Below are positions 2,894-43,123 of a stretch of 64,000 bases of DNA, piece by piece (position 1 is the stretch's first letter; each line of letters begins with the position of its first letter). Source of the DNA: Candidatus Woykebacteria bacterium. GTDB taxonomy: Bacteria > Patescibacteriota > Microgenomatia > Woykebacterales > RBG-16-39-9b. A program made the position numbers and the translations under genes. The stretch spans positions 170,510 through 234,509 of the forward strand of contig JBBDPN010000002.1 in assembly GCA_040876265.1 (NCBI GenBank). Direction: 5' to 3'. The notes below the pieces were generated by a model that ran no database searches, was not told where the DNA came from, and saw only the letters and a list, made by a program, of their open reading frames with translations.

Positions 2894-2968
2894 GCAACAT
2901 CCAATTTATCACGCATTTATTTGTGTGTCTAGGCCAACGTCGGCAGAAATTGACAGTACGTATTTAAA

Positions 2969-4618
2969 TTGCTAAGCTTAAAGTTAGAGATATTCTATAT
3001 GGAAGAGCAGTTGCCCTCACAAAAGAAGTCTTTTTTCCGAAGAGAATCACTTTACCTTGTAGTTGTATTGATCGCTGCTATTATTGTCGGCGTACTTGTA
3101 ATATTTCGCCTCAACACCACTTCCACTACAACCCAAAGCGCTGATTATGTGGAAAATCTTCCCAAGGACCAAGTTACTGTAGGAGTTTTAGGGACGATCT
3201 CAGGGCTGTATCCAACCGTCCCCTTTGATGTGGATTCGACATCAATAAACAGTAACATGTTCGAAGGACTCACCCAGATCCGAAACGGAAGATTAGAGCC
3301 AGCTCTAGCTGAAAGCTGGACCAATCCTGACAATTTGACCTGGCGTATCAAATTACGTAGCGATGCAAAATTTCATAATGGCGAGGCGCTAGAAGCCAGC
3401 GATGTTAAATATACCATTGAAGAAGCGAAAAAACATGAGGATTGGAGAGACGGGGTTCTGAACTCCATAGCGGCCAGAATTGATCGGGTGGAAGTTGTTG
3501 ACGAGGCGACTGTCCAACTGCAAACTAAAACACCCGACGCCACCCTTCTTTACTGGTTAGTGTTTCTATTTATCCTTTCGGAAGATCAGATCAAAAAAGA
3601 TGGGCTGGACAAGGCAGTAGGCACCGGCCCCTACAAATTGGTTTCAATAAATGAAAAACAGATTACTTTGCAAGCAAATAATGATTATTGGGCGGGGGCG
3701 CCTAAGGTTAAAAAACTAGTTTATAAGACTTTTGAAGACGATGAGGCTTTAGCAGGTGGATTGGAAAGTGGTGAGGTTGATCTCGCCCTTTTATTTGTAA
3801 CTACCCACAACAGTCGGCTGGAAAAGAAAGGTTTTAGGATTGTTTCGGTAAGAAGTGGGGACATAACCTTTTTTGGCTTTGATATCAATAGTAAAAAAGC
3901 AGCCCATGTAAATACGGAAACAAACCCTTTCGCCAGTCTTGATGTACGTAAGGCAATATTGCTAGCGATTGACATCAATAAAGCGCTGGAGGCGACTAAC
4001 GTTGAGGGGAAGCCGGTGAGCCAGTTTGCGGTGCCGGAGCTGATAGGTTATAACCGCAGTCTTAAAAGACCGGTCACAAATATTACTGAAGCCAAAAACC
4101 TACTTGTCAAAGCCGGCTTCCCTGATGGTTTTAAAGTTACTCTGGATATCGATGAGCCGTCAAAAAGGTTAGGAGAGGAGGTTAAGAAACAACTGGCCCA
4201 AATAAATATAGAGGTGGAGTTAAACACTTACACCGACTTCCAGAGCTATTTTGAACGGTTGACAACTGACTCATCATTTTTTGCACTAGCCTATGCGCCT
4301 GACACTTTAGACTCGGTAGATCTATTAGAGAGCTTTTTCCACACAGATGGATTTAACAACTTGAAGGGTTTTTCAGATAAGGATATCGACAGCTTGCTAG
4401 AGAAAGCCCTATCGACATTTAACACAGCCGAAAGAGCTAAATTGACCCAAGAGATTCATAAAGCAGTTATGGAGAAACTTCCATCAATTCCTTTTTACAC
4501 AAGAGTCGACCATTATGTAATCAAGGATGATGTAGCCTTCAAACCGGCCCCACCGTTCTCATTCCTATCTGGCTACGAGATTTCCGGCCGGCAAAAAGCG
4601 ACAGAAGTTAGCCAATAA
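2969..4618 (+). CDS. ABC transporter substrate-binding protein, family 5 (peptide/nickel type), N-terminal membrane anchor
   Basis: N-terminal TM helix followed by SBP_bac_5-like architecture (GTGPYKLVS and related motifs). Stop is adjacent to the downstream kinase start. Confidence 0.7.
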   Translation: MLSLKLEIFYMEEQLPSQKKSFFRRESLYLVVVLIAAIIVGVLVIFRLNTTSTTTQSADYVENLPKDQVTVGVLGTISGLYPTVPFDVDSTSINSNMFEGLTQIRNGRLEPALAESWTNPDNLTWRIKLRSDAKFHNGEALEASDVKYTIEEAKKHEDWRDGVLNSIAARIDRVEVVDEATVQLQTKTPDATLLYWLVFLFILSEDQIKKDGLDKAVGTGPYKLVSINEKQITLQANNDYWAGAPKVKKLVYKTFEDDEALAGGLESGEVDLALLFVTTHNSRLEKKGFRIVSVRSGDITFFGFDINSKKAAHVNTETNPFASLDVRKAILLAIDINKALEATNVEGKPVSQFAVPELIGYNRSLKRPVTNITEAKNLLVKAGFPDGFKVTLDIDEPSKRLGEEVKKQLAQINIEVELNTYTDFQSYFERLTTDSSFFALAYAPDTLDSVDLLESFFHTDGFNNLKGFSDKDIDSLLEKALSTFNTAERAKLTQEIHKAVMEKLPSIPFYTRVDHYVIKDDVAFKPAPPFSFLSGYEISGRQKATEVSQ

Positions 4619-37769: not shown

Positions 37770-37808
37770 TCTAACACCCTTGACAACCATTAGCACTCGT
37801 GGTAGATT
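37770..37808 (+). promoter_or_regulatory. promoter (TTGACA-N17-TAGATT) overlapping a CIRCE-like operator (TTAGCACTC-N9-ttGTGCTAc) upstream of hrcA
   Basis: TTGACA at 37770-37775. CIRCE left arm TTAGCACTC at 37780-37788. Imperfect right arm GTGCTAC at 37800-37806. Confidence 0.5.
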
Positions 37809-37862
37809 TGTGCTACTCTCGAACCGTATCAGGTTCAATATCTGGACAGCAGGTGCATTTTT

Positions 37863-38594
37863 ATGGTGGATTTGACAGAGCGGCAAAAAACACTTCTCAA
37901 AGCAATAATTGAGGAATACATTGAATCAGCCGAGCCAATCGGTAGCGAGATCATTGTAAACAAGCACTCACTCGGGGTATCACCAGCCACAGTGAGAAAC
38001 GAAATGGTTGCTCTCACCCAGGACGGATTTCTTAAACAGCCGCACACCAGTGCGGGTCGTGTTCCCACCCCAACCGGTTTTAAATTTTACATTAGGGGAC
38101 TAATGAAAGAGCAAAATTTACCGGTTAAGGACGAAGTTGAAATTAAGGAACATCTCTGGGATCACCGCTTTCACCTGCACCGGCTGTTAAAGCAGGCAAC
38201 ACGGGAGTTAGCCGAAAAATCTGGCAGCTTATCCCTTGCTGTTACTGAGGAGGGTGATCTGTACCAATCAGGAGCATACAGCATTCTGGATATGCCGGAG
38301 TTTTACGACATAGATCTAACCAAGACCATTTTAATGATGGCTGATCGCAGCGAAATGATCAATGAGATCCTTGATAAAGCAGTGATCAACGAACCAGTAT
38401 CTGTTTTACTTGGCGATGAGCTCGGCGATGAATATCTAGAGTACTGCAGTTTTGTGTTTTCACCATTTGGTGCAGGCAAGAAAAACGCCGGAGTTATCGG
38501 TATTCTCGGCCCAAGCAGGATGTCTTATCCGCACGTAGTTCCTACAGTACGTTACTTTGGGGATTTGCTCACCGAGCTCGTCAACAATTGGTAA
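37863..38594 (+). CDS. hrcA: heat-inducible transcription repressor HrcA (compact)
   Basis: N-terminal wHTH LTERQKTLLKAIIEEYIESAEPIGS. 243 aa. Confidence 0.8.
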   Translation: MVDLTERQKTLLKAIIEEYIESAEPIGSEIIVNKHSLGVSPATVRNEMVALTQDGFLKQPHTSAGRVPTPTGFKFYIRGLMKEQNLPVKDEVEIKEHLWDHRFHLHRLLKQATRELAEKSGSLSLAVTEEGDLYQSGAYSILDMPEFYDIDLTKTILMMADRSEMINEILDKAVINEPVSVLLGDELGDEYLEYCSFVFSPFGAGKKNAGVIGILGPSRMSYPHVVPTVRYFGDLLTELVNNW

Positions 38595-39055
38595 AAATGG
38601 TAAAGAAGGTAAAGAAGAGTCAGAAGAACAATAACCAATTGGAGGAACAACTCAAACGAGCGCTCGCAGATTACGCCAATTTGCAACGACGAGTGGAAGA
38701 AGACAAAAAACAAATGGCCCAGTATCTAAAAGGAGCACTCTTCATCGAACTATTACCGGTCTTGGATAATTTGGAAAAATCAGCGGCGTCGATGGGGAAA
38801 GAAACGCCTGTTTCCACGAAGCAGGGATTGGAAATGTCGATTGATCAGTTTAAGAAGCTACTTGCAGAAGAGGGGATCGAAGAAATCCGCGCTGAGGATA
38901 AATTTGATCCGAGAATACACGAAGCAGTTGAAGTGGTACCAGGAAAAGAGAGCGACAGAGTAATCGAAGTGGTGGAGAGAGGGTACCAAATAGGTGAAAG
39001 AATACTACGACCGGCTAAGGTAAGGGTAGGAAAAAGGAAAGAAAGTATAGGTTAA
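38588..39055 (+). CDS. grpE: nucleotide exchange factor GrpE
   Basis: Coiled-coil N-terminus and C-terminal GrpE domain (FDPRIHEAV ... GYQIGERILRPAKV). Confidence 0.8.
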   Translation: MVKMVKKVKKSQKNNNQLEEQLKRALADYANLQRRVEEDKKQMAQYLKGALFIELLPVLDNLEKSAASMGKETPVSTKQGLEMSIDQFKKLLAEEGIEEIRAEDKFDPRIHEAVEVVPGKESDRVIEVVERGYQIGERILRPAKVRVGKRKESIG

Positions 39056-39058
39056 ATT

Positions 39059-39301
39059 ATGATTAGAGTTTTATCACTTTTATGGACATTAGTTTTAGCA
39101 CTAGCTACGACTGGGGTAAGCTTTTTCTACATCAGAGGGGAAATGCACGGATTTCCGTTTACTTTTGCGCGAGATACTTTAGGCCAAAGCGGAAGTAAGT
39201 TGGATATAAACTTCTGGTCGGTGGTGCTCGACGTAGTTTTTTGGTGGTTAATTTTTAGTATAGTTTGGATAATTTTGAAAAATTATATCTTTGAAGCGTA
39301 A
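39059..39301 (+). CDS. small hypothetical membrane protein
   Basis: 80-aa ORF with 2 TM, between grpE and dnaK. Confidence 0.3.
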   Translation: MIRVLSLLWTLVLALATTGVSFFYIRGEMHGFPFTFARDTLGQSGSKLDINFWSVVLDVVFWWLIFSIVWIILKNYIFEA

Positions 39302-39382
39302 AGGAAGATTAAGATATGTCAAAAATTATAACGAGCGTTGCTCGATGTAAGCTTAGCCAAAGAATTATAGGAGGAACAGAGT

Positions 39383-41326
39383 ATTTCTAAGATTATTGGT
39401 ATTGACCTAGGAACAACAAACTCAGTGGTGGCGGTCGTTGAAGGAGGCCAGCCAAAAGTTATTCACAGTGCTGAGGGAGAAAACATCATCCCATCAGTTG
39501 TCGATCCAGCGAAGAGGGTAGCCGGTCGAGTGGCCAAAAGACAGCAAGTCGTGAACCCAAAACAGACCATTTTTTCTGTGAAAAGGCTTATGGGTCGACA
39601 TTTTAAAGACACCCAAGTGCAGGAGGACATGAAATGGCTCCCCTACGAAATAAAAGAAGGTAAGGACAGTACGGCGACTGTTGAAGTGGAGGGTAAACAA
39701 TACACCCCACAGGAAATTTCGGCCCAAATTCTGCAAAAAATAAAGAGCGATGCAGAAAGTTATCTAGGGGAAAAAGTAACAGAGGCGGTCATTACTGTTC
39801 CTGCTTATTTTGATGATGCCCAGCGTCAAGCTACAAAACAAGCCGGAGAAGTGGCTGGACTTGAGGTCAAAAGGATCATTAACGAGCCAACAGCCGCAGC
39901 TCTCGCCTACGGTTTAGATAAAGAGAAAGCTCATACTATTGCTGTCTATGATCTTGGTGGTGGGACTTTTGATATTACTATTCTGGAGCTGGGAGAGGGA
40001 GTCTTCGAAGTAAAAGCAACTGCTGGAGACACTCACCTGGGTGGAGACGATTTTGACCAAAAAGTTATTGATTACTTAACCACTGAATTTAAAAAAGAAC
40101 AAGGTATTGATCTCGCGAGCGACAAACAAGCCTTGCAACGATTGAGAGATGCAGCAGAGAAAGCAAAAATCGAACTTTCTTCCACCACCGAAACTGAAAT
40201 CAACATTCCTTATATTACGGCTGACGCTAGCGGTCCAAAGCACCTGGTTCATAAATTAACACGGGCCAAGCTGGAAGCCTTAACCGGGGAGTTAATAGAA
40301 AAAAGTTTCAAAGCAGTAGAACAGGTGCTGAAAGACGCGAAGATTGAAGCCGGTAAAGTAGATGAAGTTGTACTAGTTGGGGGCCAAACTCGAATGCCGG
40401 CTGTCGCCGAAAAGGTAAAAAGTTTCTTTGGTAAAGACCCACACAAAGGAATAAATCCCGACGAAGTCGTCGCTATCGGGGCCGCTATCCAGGGTGCAGT
40501 ACTTTCTGGGGAAATGAAAGATGTTGTGCTTTTGGACGTAACACCGCTGTCTCTTGGAGTGGAAACTTTGGGTAGCGTTTCGACAGTTCTAATTCCTAGA
40601 AACACCACTGTTCCCACCCAAAAAAGCGAAGTTTTTTCTACTGCAGCGGATAATCAAACATCGGTTGAAATTCACGTGTTGCAGGGTGAACGGCCGATGG
40701 CAGCGGACAACAAATCCCTAGGACGTTTTATCCTCGACGGTGTCCCACCGGCGCCAAGAGGCATCCCGCAGGTAGAGGTAACGTTTGACATCGATGCCAA
40801 TGGAATTCTCAACGTGACGGCGAAAGAAAAAACAACTGGTAAAGAGCAATCCATAAAAATTACGGGCTCTACTGGGCTTTCCAAAGAAGAAGTCGAGAAA
40901 ATGCAAAAGGAGGCTGAAGCCCACGCCGCCGAAGATACCAAGAAAAAAGAGTTAATCGAGGCTCGAAATATTGCCGACAGCCTGGTTTACACTGCTGAGA
41001 AGTCCCTGAAAGACGCTGGTGACAAGGTACCAGGGGATGTAAAAGAAGAAGTGGAAGATAAAGCCAAAGTAGCTAAGGAAAAAATAGCCGCTGACGATTT
41101 GGAAGAAATACGTAAAGCAACCGACGAGCTAAGCGCTTCCTTGCAAAAAATAGGTCACGCTATGTCTTCTCGTTCCCCAGGCTCTGATACCACCGGTGCT
41201 GGAGTGCAAGAAGAAATAAAAGAAGGTGAAGAAAAAAAAGATAAGGGCAAAGAGAATCCACCAGCTAGCGGAGAAACCGTAGAAGGCGAAGTAGTCGACG
41301 AGGACAAAAAGGAAGAGAAAAAGTAA
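39383..41326 (+). CDS. dnaK: molecular chaperone DnaK (Hsp70), inferred ATT initiation codon
   Basis: Full Hsp70 motifs ([18 protein letters not shown], and others). The only upstream in-frame position that gives the canonical (M)[14 protein letters not shown]-terminus is ATT at 39383. It lies 8 nt after AGGAGG (39369-39374). The first ATG/GTG/TTG (39425) would truncate the conserved motif. Confidence 0.9.
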
Positions 41327-41729: not shown

Positions 41730-42028
41730 CGGATCTCCCCCCCAAGCTTAGATGACAGAACTGTTATAGGATTATAACACCCCTTACCACCAACGTGAGT
41801 GTACTAATAATTGAAAATTGTTTGTTGATAATTATTCAAATTTACTATAGCTTATTGACAGAAGCGGTAATTTGGTGTACAAAGCTCTTGCCAGATGTCC
41901 TACAAAACCCTGTTTTTTATAGTTCTTCTTCTTGTTGGTGTAGTCCTAGCCTTCCTCTTTCTAGCTGGATTTGTCCGCCAGTCTTAAATTAGCAAACACT
42001 TGAAATATCTGCTAAAATCCTCTTCATA

Positions 42029-43123
42029 ATGTCAACAAAAAAAGATTATTATGACGTCCTCGGCGTCTCCAAAACAGCCTCAGATTCTGAAATAAAGAGC
42101 GCTTATCGTAAAAAAGCACGGGCTCATCACCCGGATGTAGATAAATCTGCGGACGCCGAGAAAAAATTTAAAGAAATAAACGAGTCTTATCAAGTGCTTT
42201 CTGACCCTCAGAAACGAGAAGCCTACGACCGTTTTGGTCACGATGCCTTTCGCACTGGTGGAGCCGGAGCCCCAGGGGGCTTCAGCTATCAGTACTCCCC
42301 AGGTGTAGATTTCAACTTTGACTTTGGTGGGTTTGCCGATCCCTTTGAAATATTCGAGCAGTTTTTTGGTGCTCGTTCTCCGTTTGGTGGTTCAGCGCGG
42401 CGTGGACCGAGAACAGGCGAGGACCTTCATTACGAGATTATCATCCCCTTTGAGCAAGCGGCTTTTGGTGTAGAAAAGAAAGTTGAGCTGGAGCGGCACG
42501 AAAACTGCTCGGTGTGCGGTGGTTCTGGAGCAGAGCTGGGAAGCAAAAAGACTAAGTGCCCTACATGCAATGGAAGAGGTCGTATCCAGCAAGCAACCCA
42601 ATCTATTTTTGGTAACATAGTTACATCACGTACGTGTCCTACTTGCGGTGGTGAGGGTGAAGCGATAGAGAAAAAATGCCACCAGTGTAAAGGTTCTGGC
42701 CGTACAAAGGCAATCGCCGAGAAGACAATTAAGATCCCCGCTGGAGTAGATGATGGCGATACTATTCGGTTTCAAGGCTTGGGCGAGGCCGGGGAACGCG
42801 GCGGCGGCTACGGTGATCTTTATCTTTCGATCCGTGTCTTGCCTCACAAAGAGTTCAAACGCCGCGGGTTTGACGTTTACTATGAACAGCCGATTTCTTT
42901 TTCCCAGGCCGCTCTGGGGGATACGATCGAAGTGACAACTCTTGACGGAGAAATGAAATTAAAAATTCCCGAAGGTACCCAGACCGGAACGGAATTCCGC
43001 TTAAAAGATAAAGGTATAAAGCACGATAGTTCTCGTGGTGACCAATACGTGCGTGTCAAAGTACAAACCCCGACACGGCTTTCTTCAAAACAGAAAGAAG
43101 CGTTGAAAAATCTAAGGGATTAA
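42029..43123 (+). CDS. dnaJ: molecular chaperone DnaJ
   Basis: J-domain with HPD. G/F region. Four CxxCxGxG zinc-finger repeats. C-terminal domains. Confidence 0.9.
   Translation: MSTKKDYYDVLGVSKTASDSEIKSAYRKKARAHHPDVDKSADAEKKFKEINESYQVLSDPQKREAYDRFGHDAFRTGGAGAPGGFSYQYSPGVDFNFDFGGFADPFEIFEQFFGARSPFGGSARRGPRTGEDLHYEIIIPFEQAAFGVEKKVELERHENCSVCGGSGAELGSKKTKCPTCNGRGRIQQATQSIFGNIVTSRTCPTCGGEGEAIEKKCHQCKGSGRTKAIAEKTIKIPAGVDDGDTIRFQGLGEAGERGGGYGDLYLSIRVLPHKEFKRRGFDVYYEQPISFSQAALGDTIEVTTLDGEMKLKIPEGTQTGTEFRLKDKGIKHDSSRGDQYVRVKVQTPTRLSSKQKEALKNLRD

Follow-up and report, generated by a model that had tools for sequence, protein, structure and literature searches.

The dnaK gene on a 64-kb stretch of a Candidatus Woykebacteria genome (contig JBBDPN010000002.1 of assembly GCA_040876265.1; the whole stretch is called the window below, and all coordinates are window positions) probably begins with AUU, a codon that is rarely used for initiation in bacteria. 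Reading frame, ribosome-binding site and comparison with related loci place the translation start at ATT 39383 with a probability of roughly three in four, in which case the AUU would be decoded by the initiator tRNA. Upstream of this codon lies what appears to be an earlier start of the same gene, displaced by an insertion and surviving as a short leader open reading frame (ORF), and this arrangement offers a possible route by which so weak a start codon could be assisted.

The start position of dnaK

Read directly from the sequence, the dnaK frame is closed by the stop codon TAG 39368-39370 and is open from 39371, and the codons between that point and ATT 39383 (GAG GAA CAG AGT) include no canonical start. 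A perfect Shine-Dalgarno (SD) sequence, AGGAGG, is separated from the ATT by the 8-nt spacer AACAGAGT (39375-39382). The codons that follow the ATT, TCT AAG ATT ATT GGT ATT GAC CTA GGA ACA ACA AAC TCA (39386-39424), encode the phosphate-1 motif of Hsp70 proteins, (G)IDLGTT(N/Y)S, and only after them comes the first canonical start in frame, GTG 39425, which has no SD and is preceded by ACAACAAACTCA. A first-pass annotation of the sequence had described the frame as open from 39371, with AGGAGG 8 nt before the ATT and no in-frame ATG, GTG or TTG ahead of GTG 39425, and every one of these points held on rereading. Counted on both strands, the window has 44 copies of the hexamer AGGAGG, which gives a chance of about 0.2% that one starts 5-10 nt before a given codon, and its placement before the ATT is therefore not readily attributed to chance. 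Moreover, a crude scan of 55 long ORFs picked out dnaK alone as a gene with a strong SD and a near-cognate codon before its first canonical start, with no canonical start immediately beside.

The start of dnaK could be read at 97 related loci, among them one identical contig (L081), and in the 119 closest proteins. At 95 of the 96 other loci the position of the ATT is the start (91 with ATG, two with GTG and two near contig ends), and the 96th is L081 itself, which carries the ATT. The last two, L006 and L033, have ATG at this position but lie too near contig ends for the start-pattern count. At 74 species-representative loci an in-frame ATG stands exactly 7 codons before DLGTT, the distance being 8-9 codons in six of them with one or two extra N-terminal residues, and a further 17 loci with a readable start have ATG throughout except for the GTG of L084 and L085. 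In the protein set the first residue is M in 115, V in three (a GTG at the same position) and L in one (P0048, from a TTG called 7 codons upstream), and the conserved N-terminal segment of 13 residues that follows the start is present in 119 of 119. An alignment with the dnaK starts of relatives, which the first-pass annotation had proposed, thus makes the ATT the start position of the orthologues, and none of them starts at the equivalent of 39425. Apart from the identical L081, no ATT was found at the dnaK start among the readable loci and proteins.

GTG takes the place of ATG at the dnaK start of L084 and L085 and of the genes for proteins P0043, P0045 and P0060; the dnaK start codon is evolutionarily labile in the Woykebacteria-like clade.

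Codons 2-16 after the ATT differ from those of seven related lineages by 6-9 synonymous and 1-3 non-synonymous changes. A product that starts at the ATT covers positions 1-597 of the 599 in the HSP70 profile (PF00012; E = 2.4e-254), whereas one that starts at GTG 39425 is matched from position 12 onwards and loses positions 1-11, with the phosphate-binding IDLGTT loop. The profile thus agrees with the earlier claim that a start at 39425 would remove the phosphate-binding motif, and the start positions of the related loci agree with the claim that the conserved DnaK N-terminus needs ATT 39383. The closest DnaK proteins, 84-87% identical, come from metagenome-assembled genomes (MAGs) of Candidatus Woykebacteria. 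The window DnaK is no more divergent from outgroups than are its sister DnaKs, so that no acceleration of rate is seen, and at the columns conserved in at least 97% of sequences it deviates once, by a conservative change from I to V. With its full HSP70 match and its unaccelerated rate, the gene looks functional.

The same start region is present on Logan contig SRR27977662_3004 (L081; 36 kb, from run SRR27977662), which matches the window base for base along 7,902 nt, the ATT included. The automatic gene call on that contig used GTG 39425 (633 aa), whereas the NCBI protein MEX0622145.1 (647 aa, encoded on a 302-kb Woykebacteria contig) equals the translation from the ATT, initiator residue aside, and shares a protein cluster with the 633-aa call. 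Judged by this identity, the NCBI annotation in all likelihood already places the dnaK start at ATT 39383.

A former start and a leader upstream of dnaK

A second start-like sequence, absent from the first-pass annotation, lies 67 nt upstream of the ATT. This codon, ATG 39316, lies in the +1 frame with respect to dnaK and begins the sequence ATG TCA AAA ATT AT; its first 14 nt are those of the dnaK start save for three third-position differences, and its first five residues, MSKII, are the same as in dnaK. It follows the stop codon of orf80 (TAA 39299-39301), the small gene between grpE and dnaK, after 14 nt. At the loci L084 and L095, AAGGAGG and the dnaK start come 15-17 nt after the orf80 stop. 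Because the distances to the orf80 stop match, ATG 39316 is, by position, the ancestral dnaK start. The SD that would have served this fossil start is degraded in the two leader-bearing lineages, reading AAGGAAG in the window and AAGGATT in the RBG_16_39_9b lineage of Woykebacteria, and is AAGGAGG in six of six leaderless lineages.

Compared with the leaderless relatives, the window has an insertion of about 67 nt that contains a hairpin and a spacer, an SD and a start codon of its own, and codons that replace those for S-K-I-I. A homologous insertion is found in the RBG_16_39_9b lineage, where an identical leader occurs in L083, L086-L091, L092 and L093 and where the downstream dnaK start is a normal ATG with the SD region GAGAGGAG; the AGGAGG of the window is at least as strong as the SD of this ATG-bearing sister leader. 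Because the SD is strong, because the S-K codons have been kept with only synonymous differences, and because the sister lineage has ATG there, the downstream copy appears to be the functional dnaK start in both leader-bearing lineages.

The fossil ATG opens a mini-ORF, the stop codon of which (TAA 39388-39390 in the window) overlaps the ATT start by 8 nt. The L083 mini-ORF (MSKIITSCARCNLRQEHILERS) is in frame 0 with respect to dnaK and ends with a stop 3 nt ahead of the dnaK ATG. Over the first 15 codons of the mini-ORF there are 4 synonymous and 3 non-synonymous changes, which, together with the weakened yet persisting fossil SD and the predicted pairing of the dnaK SD, may be an indirect hint that the mini-ORF is translated and coupled to dnaK. 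The hairpin within the leader differs from that of the RBG_16_39_9b lineage by one compensatory change (G-C to U-A) and by a fully divergent loop, the evidence for covariation being that of two sequences. A start-stop pair, ATGTAA, at 39345-39350 in the 3' arm of the hairpin is conserved in both leader lineages, probably only because it is part of the outer stem.

Several origins and functions for the insertion were considered and rejected. In a BLAST search against the window and all 99 loci no second copy of the 53-nt insert or of the 105-nt leader was found, and a dispersed miniature inverted-repeat transposable element or repetitive extragenic palindromic element was rejected on the ground that the sequence is single-copy in the window and the fetched loci. 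A simple tandem duplication was rejected as well, since the 5' 36 nt of the insert match the 36 nt before the fossil initiation region at only 7 of 36 positions (an ungapped comparison by eye) and do not resemble dnaK codons 6-18. The hairpin is not taken for a terminator or attenuator, as it has no U-run on the + strand and was flagged only on the - strand, nor for an operator of the CIRCE type (controlling inverted repeat of chaperone expression), which it does not resemble and of which a candidate sits upstream of hrcA. An Rfam scan of the window returned one tRNA only, with no leader or thermometer family at the dnaK locus, and no other gene of the window has a duplicated-start architecture. 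A metagenome scan with the motif ATGNNNAARATTATAACN11GATGTAA returned L092 and L093, both of the RBG_16_39_9b lineage, and one chance hit, L094, but no third leader-bearing lineage.

The window and the RBG_16_39_9b leader lineages are not sisters in the DnaK tree, a distribution for which precise loss by way of the 14-nt direct repeat, poor resolution of the tree and lateral transfer are all conceivable reasons. The displacement of a fossil start into a leader ORF is an unusual form of gene-start evolution, documented here in two lineages.

Initiation at AUU and the alternatives to it

Because the mini-ORF opened by the fossil start overlaps the ATT, the mechanism to be considered shifts from simple AUU initiation towards initiation assisted by translational coupling. 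Coupling by termination-reinitiation and by the unfolding of RNA is strongest at stop-start distances such as these (PMC12548453). In RNAfold predictions the dnaK SD and start region of the window pair with each other, and the SD is unpaired with a probability of 0.19, compared with 0.53 when the ATT is reverted to ATG and 0.59 in L083; as the SD is predicted to be paired, its unfolding by an upstream ribosome would help. With regard to an RNA thermometer, in which a conserved and marginally stable hairpin would sequester SD and start, the predictions are mixed, since the SD is paired in the window and not clearly so in L083. It is plausible that a putative coupling from the mini-ORF assists AUU initiation at dnaK, which would require ribosomes to translate the mini-ORF and part of the output of the gene to come from coupling.

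The following course of events would account for the locus. In an ancestor shared with the RBG_16_39_9b lineage, or exchanging DNA with it, a segment of about 67 nt would have been inserted after dnaK nucleotide 14 (ATG TCA AAA ATT AT^), supplying the hairpin, the new SD, the new start codon and the replacement S-K-I-I codons. The original ATG 39316 would in this way have come to open a short leader ORF, and the copy downstream would have taken over as the real start of dnaK. Later, in the window lineage, the new start would have changed from ATG to ATT. Initiation at the AUU would since then be sustained by the perfect AGGAGG at its 8-nt spacing and probably also be helped by ribosomes on the mini-ORF, which would open the local pairing between SD and start region and would stop at UAA 39388-90 with the AUU two nt behind the P site and the SD in register, a geometry suited to termination-reinitiation.

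A bolder proposal, that the leader is a dedicated translational control device and that the change from ATG to ATT made DnaK synthesis strictly dependent on it, is unlikely. If it were true, DnaK synthesis would require the passage of ribosomes over the mini-ORF, for instance when hairpins are melted at high temperature or, alternatively, when free DnaK has ceased to bind the nascent MSKIITSVARCKL peptide, which resembles a DnaK substrate, and the locus would represent a post-transcriptional heat-shock or feedback circuit, which has not been described for dnaK.

A number of considerations weigh against the AUU start and the coupling attached to it. Support comes from assembled sequence. In E. 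coli reporters AUU yields about 1-2% of the output of AUG (10.1101/063800), a figure hard to reconcile with the synthesis of a major chaperone unless coupling or a permissive initiation factor 3 (IF3) compensates. Found in a single lineage, the ATT may have arisen very recently, and an intact gene is no proof of good expression; the two concordant assemblies, moreover, may derive from the same reads. Only two lineages bear the leader, and the nearness of stop and start could be a coincidence, with a chance of about 1-5% by a rough and unsimulated estimate. The predicted fold of the leader is no more stable than that of shuffled sequence (z = 0.19), so that the predicted pairing counts as a hint only, and the hairpin lies within the 30S footprint of the fossil ATG, where it might silence the mini-ORF rather than allow coupling.

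These points bear in part on an alternative in which the ATT is a recent hypomorphic or null mutation of the ATG that drift has fixed, or that the dominant strain carries, in a symbiont with a small population, so that DnaK is made in traces or not at all and the gene has not yet had time to decay. The feebleness of AUU in E. coli would fit such a mutation, as would the uniqueness of the ATT among the readable loci and proteins and the lability of the start codon within the clade, and there is no diverged sequence from the same species to show that the ATT is old. Nevertheless, the initiation region has been maintained, with a perfect AGGAGG at ideal spacing, DnaK shows no excess of amino-acid divergence, and the gene is part of an intact hrcA-grpE-dnaK/dnaJ regulon with a CIRCE-like operator. 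We give this explanation a low probability, and even under it any residual translation would still begin at the ATT.

Less probable still is an artefact of base calling or consensus building, in which the true codon would be ATG and T 39385 would stem from a sequencing or assembly error or from a minority variant that entered the consensus. The codon is a single base away from the otherwise universal ATG, and the two assemblies possibly stem from the same run; however, two different assemblers agree without a mismatch over the 7,902 nt that they share, and the surrounding sequence, AGTATTTCT, is not a long homopolymer or any known error motif.

It is very improbable that DnaK is instead made by recoding from ATG 39316, be it through a bypass that spans about 64-67 nt between ATT 39325 and ATT 39392 or through a +1 frameshift near UAU UUC UAA, the latter giving a DnaK with an N-terminal extension of 23 residues, in which the peptide MSKIITSVARCK... 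is fused to the chaperone. The locus does share several traits with gene 60 of phage T4 and its 50-nt coding gap. A short non-homologous insertion lies in the 5' coding region between matched flanking codons (AAA ATT AT. and AAR ATT ATT, in both lineages, with matched take-off and landing codons at ATT 39325 and ATT 39392/39395), the conserved hairpin of the upstream copy starts at the putative take-off codons, and an SD-like element stands ahead of the landing site in the downstream copy. The +1 frame of the mini-ORF, with its stop next to the ATT, may be added to these. In contrast to gene 60, the dnaK insertion has an initiation region of its own (SD and ATG in L083, AGGAGG and ATT in the window), ATT ATA is followed by ACG in the window or ACT in L083 and not by a stop codon, and with 4-5 codons ahead of the putative take-off site the nascent chain would be too short for the long peptide signal of gene 60 and prone to drop-off. 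In the sister leader, furthermore, a normal SD and ATG lie downstream and the frame-0 mini-ORF is closed by a stop, so that recoding is neither needed nor conserved, and the downstream ATG/ATT-TCN-AAR keeps S-K with synonymous differences only, a constraint that would be unneeded in a bypassed gap. It also counts against recoding that AUA is read by a dedicated tRNA-Ile2 and, as regards a frameshift, that re-pairing from UUC to UCU is poor and that the SD spacing is 10 nt, compared with the 3 nt of the prfB type. The comparison favours separate initiation at the downstream copy over hopping of the gene 60 type.

Initiation at GTG 39425 is scarcely credible: it is the first canonical start in frame and the one chosen in the Logan gene call, but it has no SD upstream, it would deprive DnaK of its first 14 residues and with them of strand beta-1 and the phosphate-1 loop, both kept in 119 of 119 homologues, and the 14 codons ahead of it are perfectly preserved behind an ideal SD.

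Known systems, operon context and significance

That AUU starts are rare yet documented, as the first-pass annotation noted with infC as its example, agrees with the literature, in which infC (for IF3) and pcnB (for poly(A) polymerase), both known from E. coli, are the only confirmed AUU genes (10.1101/063800). The dnaK ATT resembles these two in its position at the start of a conserved protein, in the SD upstream, and in the reduced intrinsic initiation, sensitive to proofreading by IF3, that is to be expected of it (10.1101/063800). The infC gene is absent from the 64-kb window, and a literature search on non-AUG starts of dnaK found nothing relevant. At infC, IF3 itself discriminates against AUU, hence a specific feedback loop, and the AUU is conserved across many bacteria. 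By contrast, a single lineage has the dnaK ATT, an upstream mini-ORF runs across it, and DnaK is a chaperone without a known role in start-codon proofreading. The autoregulation that had been suggested on the model of infC has no support at dnaK, where nothing suggests an equivalent loop, where known DnaK biology gives no cause to expect one, and where the ATT is conserved in no relative. The dnaK ATT is a new example of a known rarity, the bacterial AUU start, although unlike that of infC it is not conserved.

With translationally coupled pairs such as trpE-trpD, galT-galK and those joined by ATGA or TAATG, the locus has in common a co-directional upstream ORF, with a stop 3 nt before the start (L083) or an 8-nt overlap (window), and an SD inside the upstream ORF, the predicted pairing of which would be melted by an upstream ribosome. 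It differs from them in that the partner of dnaK is not a gene for a protein subunit but a relic, 22-24 codons long, of its own former start.

The features of the locus are collected in Table 1. The promoter-like site ahead of hrcA is overlapped by a CIRCE-like repeat at 37790-37816, TTAGCACTC-N9-TTGTGCTAC, with 3 mismatches to TTAGCACTC-N9-GAGTGCTAA (0.01 expected by chance), and is probably the HrcA-controlled promoter of the operon. A degenerate repeat of the same kind, TTAGCAAAC-N9-ATCTGCTAA, lies at about 41989-42015 just upstream of dnaJ, and downstream of dnaJ come nusA, infB and pnp. The genes hrcA, grpE, dnaK and dnaJ are syntenic with those of relatives; the slot between dnaK and dnaJ is occupied in relatives by different genes (PIN-domain genes, hypothetical proteins). 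Between grpE and dnaK, orf80 is conserved in all Woykebacteria-like loci examined, encoding 80-85 aa that end in ...FWWLxFSxxWIILKNYIFE, and is an uncharacterised member of the chaperone operon. The tight packing of these genes is compatible with serial translational coupling. In the order hrcA-grpE-(orf80)-dnaK ... dnaJ and in the CIRCE-like repeat over a sigma-70-like promoter the locus resembles the HrcA/CIRCE heat-shock operons of Gram-positive bacteria, from which it differs in the extra small membrane ORF between grpE and dnaK, the receiver gene on the minus strand between dnaK and dnaJ, and the leader insertion before dnaK.

Table 1. Features at and around the dnaK start, in window positions
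Feature	Position	Strand	Remarks
Promoter-like site TTGACA-17-TAGATT with TG, upstream of hrcA	37780..37816	+	overlapped by CIRCE-like inverted repeat
hrcA	37863..38594	+	PF01628
grpE	38588..39055	+	PF01025; TTG start overlaps hrcA end by 7 nt (38588-38594)
orf80	39059..39301	+	80-aa hydrophobic product, no Pfam match; starts 4 nt after grpE stop
Apparent fossil dnaK Shine-Dalgarno, degraded (AAGGAAG)	39301..39307	+	from comparison with leaderless relatives
Mini-ORF, 24 codons	39316..39390	+	ATG and first 14 nt correspond to the apparent ancestral dnaK start; +1 frame relative to dnaK
Conserved hairpin UUAUA-A-CGAGC-GUU-GCUCG-A-UGUAA	39326..39350	+	10 bp
Insertion of about 67 nt relative to leaderless relatives	39330..39396	+	borders ambiguous within repeated ..ATTAT
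Shine-Dalgarno AGGAGG	39369..39374	+	8 nt before ATT; sequence read directly
Probable dnaK initiation codon ATT	39383..39385	+	from sequence and comparison with related loci
dnaK	39383..41326	+	647 codons and stop; HSP70 profile match; equals NCBI MEX0622145.1
GTG, first canonical in-frame start	39425..39427	+	ORF 39425..41326, 633 aa
Receiver-domain-like protein, 116 aa	41379-41729	-	PF00072, below curated cutoff; between dnaK and dnaJ
dnaJ	42029..43123	+	degenerate CIRCE-like repeat upstream

Two observations concern the records used for comparison. In L007 (LCFP01000003.1, Ca. Gottesmanbacteria GW2011_GWA2_43_14) dnaK lacks roughly its first 27 codons at about 2960-3010, the grpE stop standing almost directly before sequence that encodes ...GRNVIPSVVDP; the 5' end has either truly been deleted or been lost through a defect of the assembly. 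A group of other records (L001, L004-L006, L008, L010 and others, with P0014/P0074) are MAGs resembling those of the candidate phyla radiation (CPR), with a DnaK closest to that of Microgenomates or Woykebacteria; many such records are titled 'uncultured Gammaproteobacteria bacterium' or 'Candidatus Nanoarchaeia archaeon', titles that look like taxonomy errors at the level of the record.

The finding has a practical side for annotation, as gene callers limited to ATG, GTG and TTG cut 14 residues and the ATP-binding loop from DnaK, which is what happened on the Logan contig, while the homology-guided NCBI call recovers the full-length protein. With an AUU start at dnaK, a third kind of housekeeping gene, a major chaperone, would join the very short list of bacterial genes with this start codon, and it would do so in a CPR bacterium with a poorly studied translation apparatus. 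The locus also records the displacement of a gene start: a new initiation region appears to have arrived with a short insertion, and what was once the start now opens a leader ORF in a position that would suit coupling. Should such coupling take place, the locus would show how a near-null start codon can be tolerated, or even exploited.

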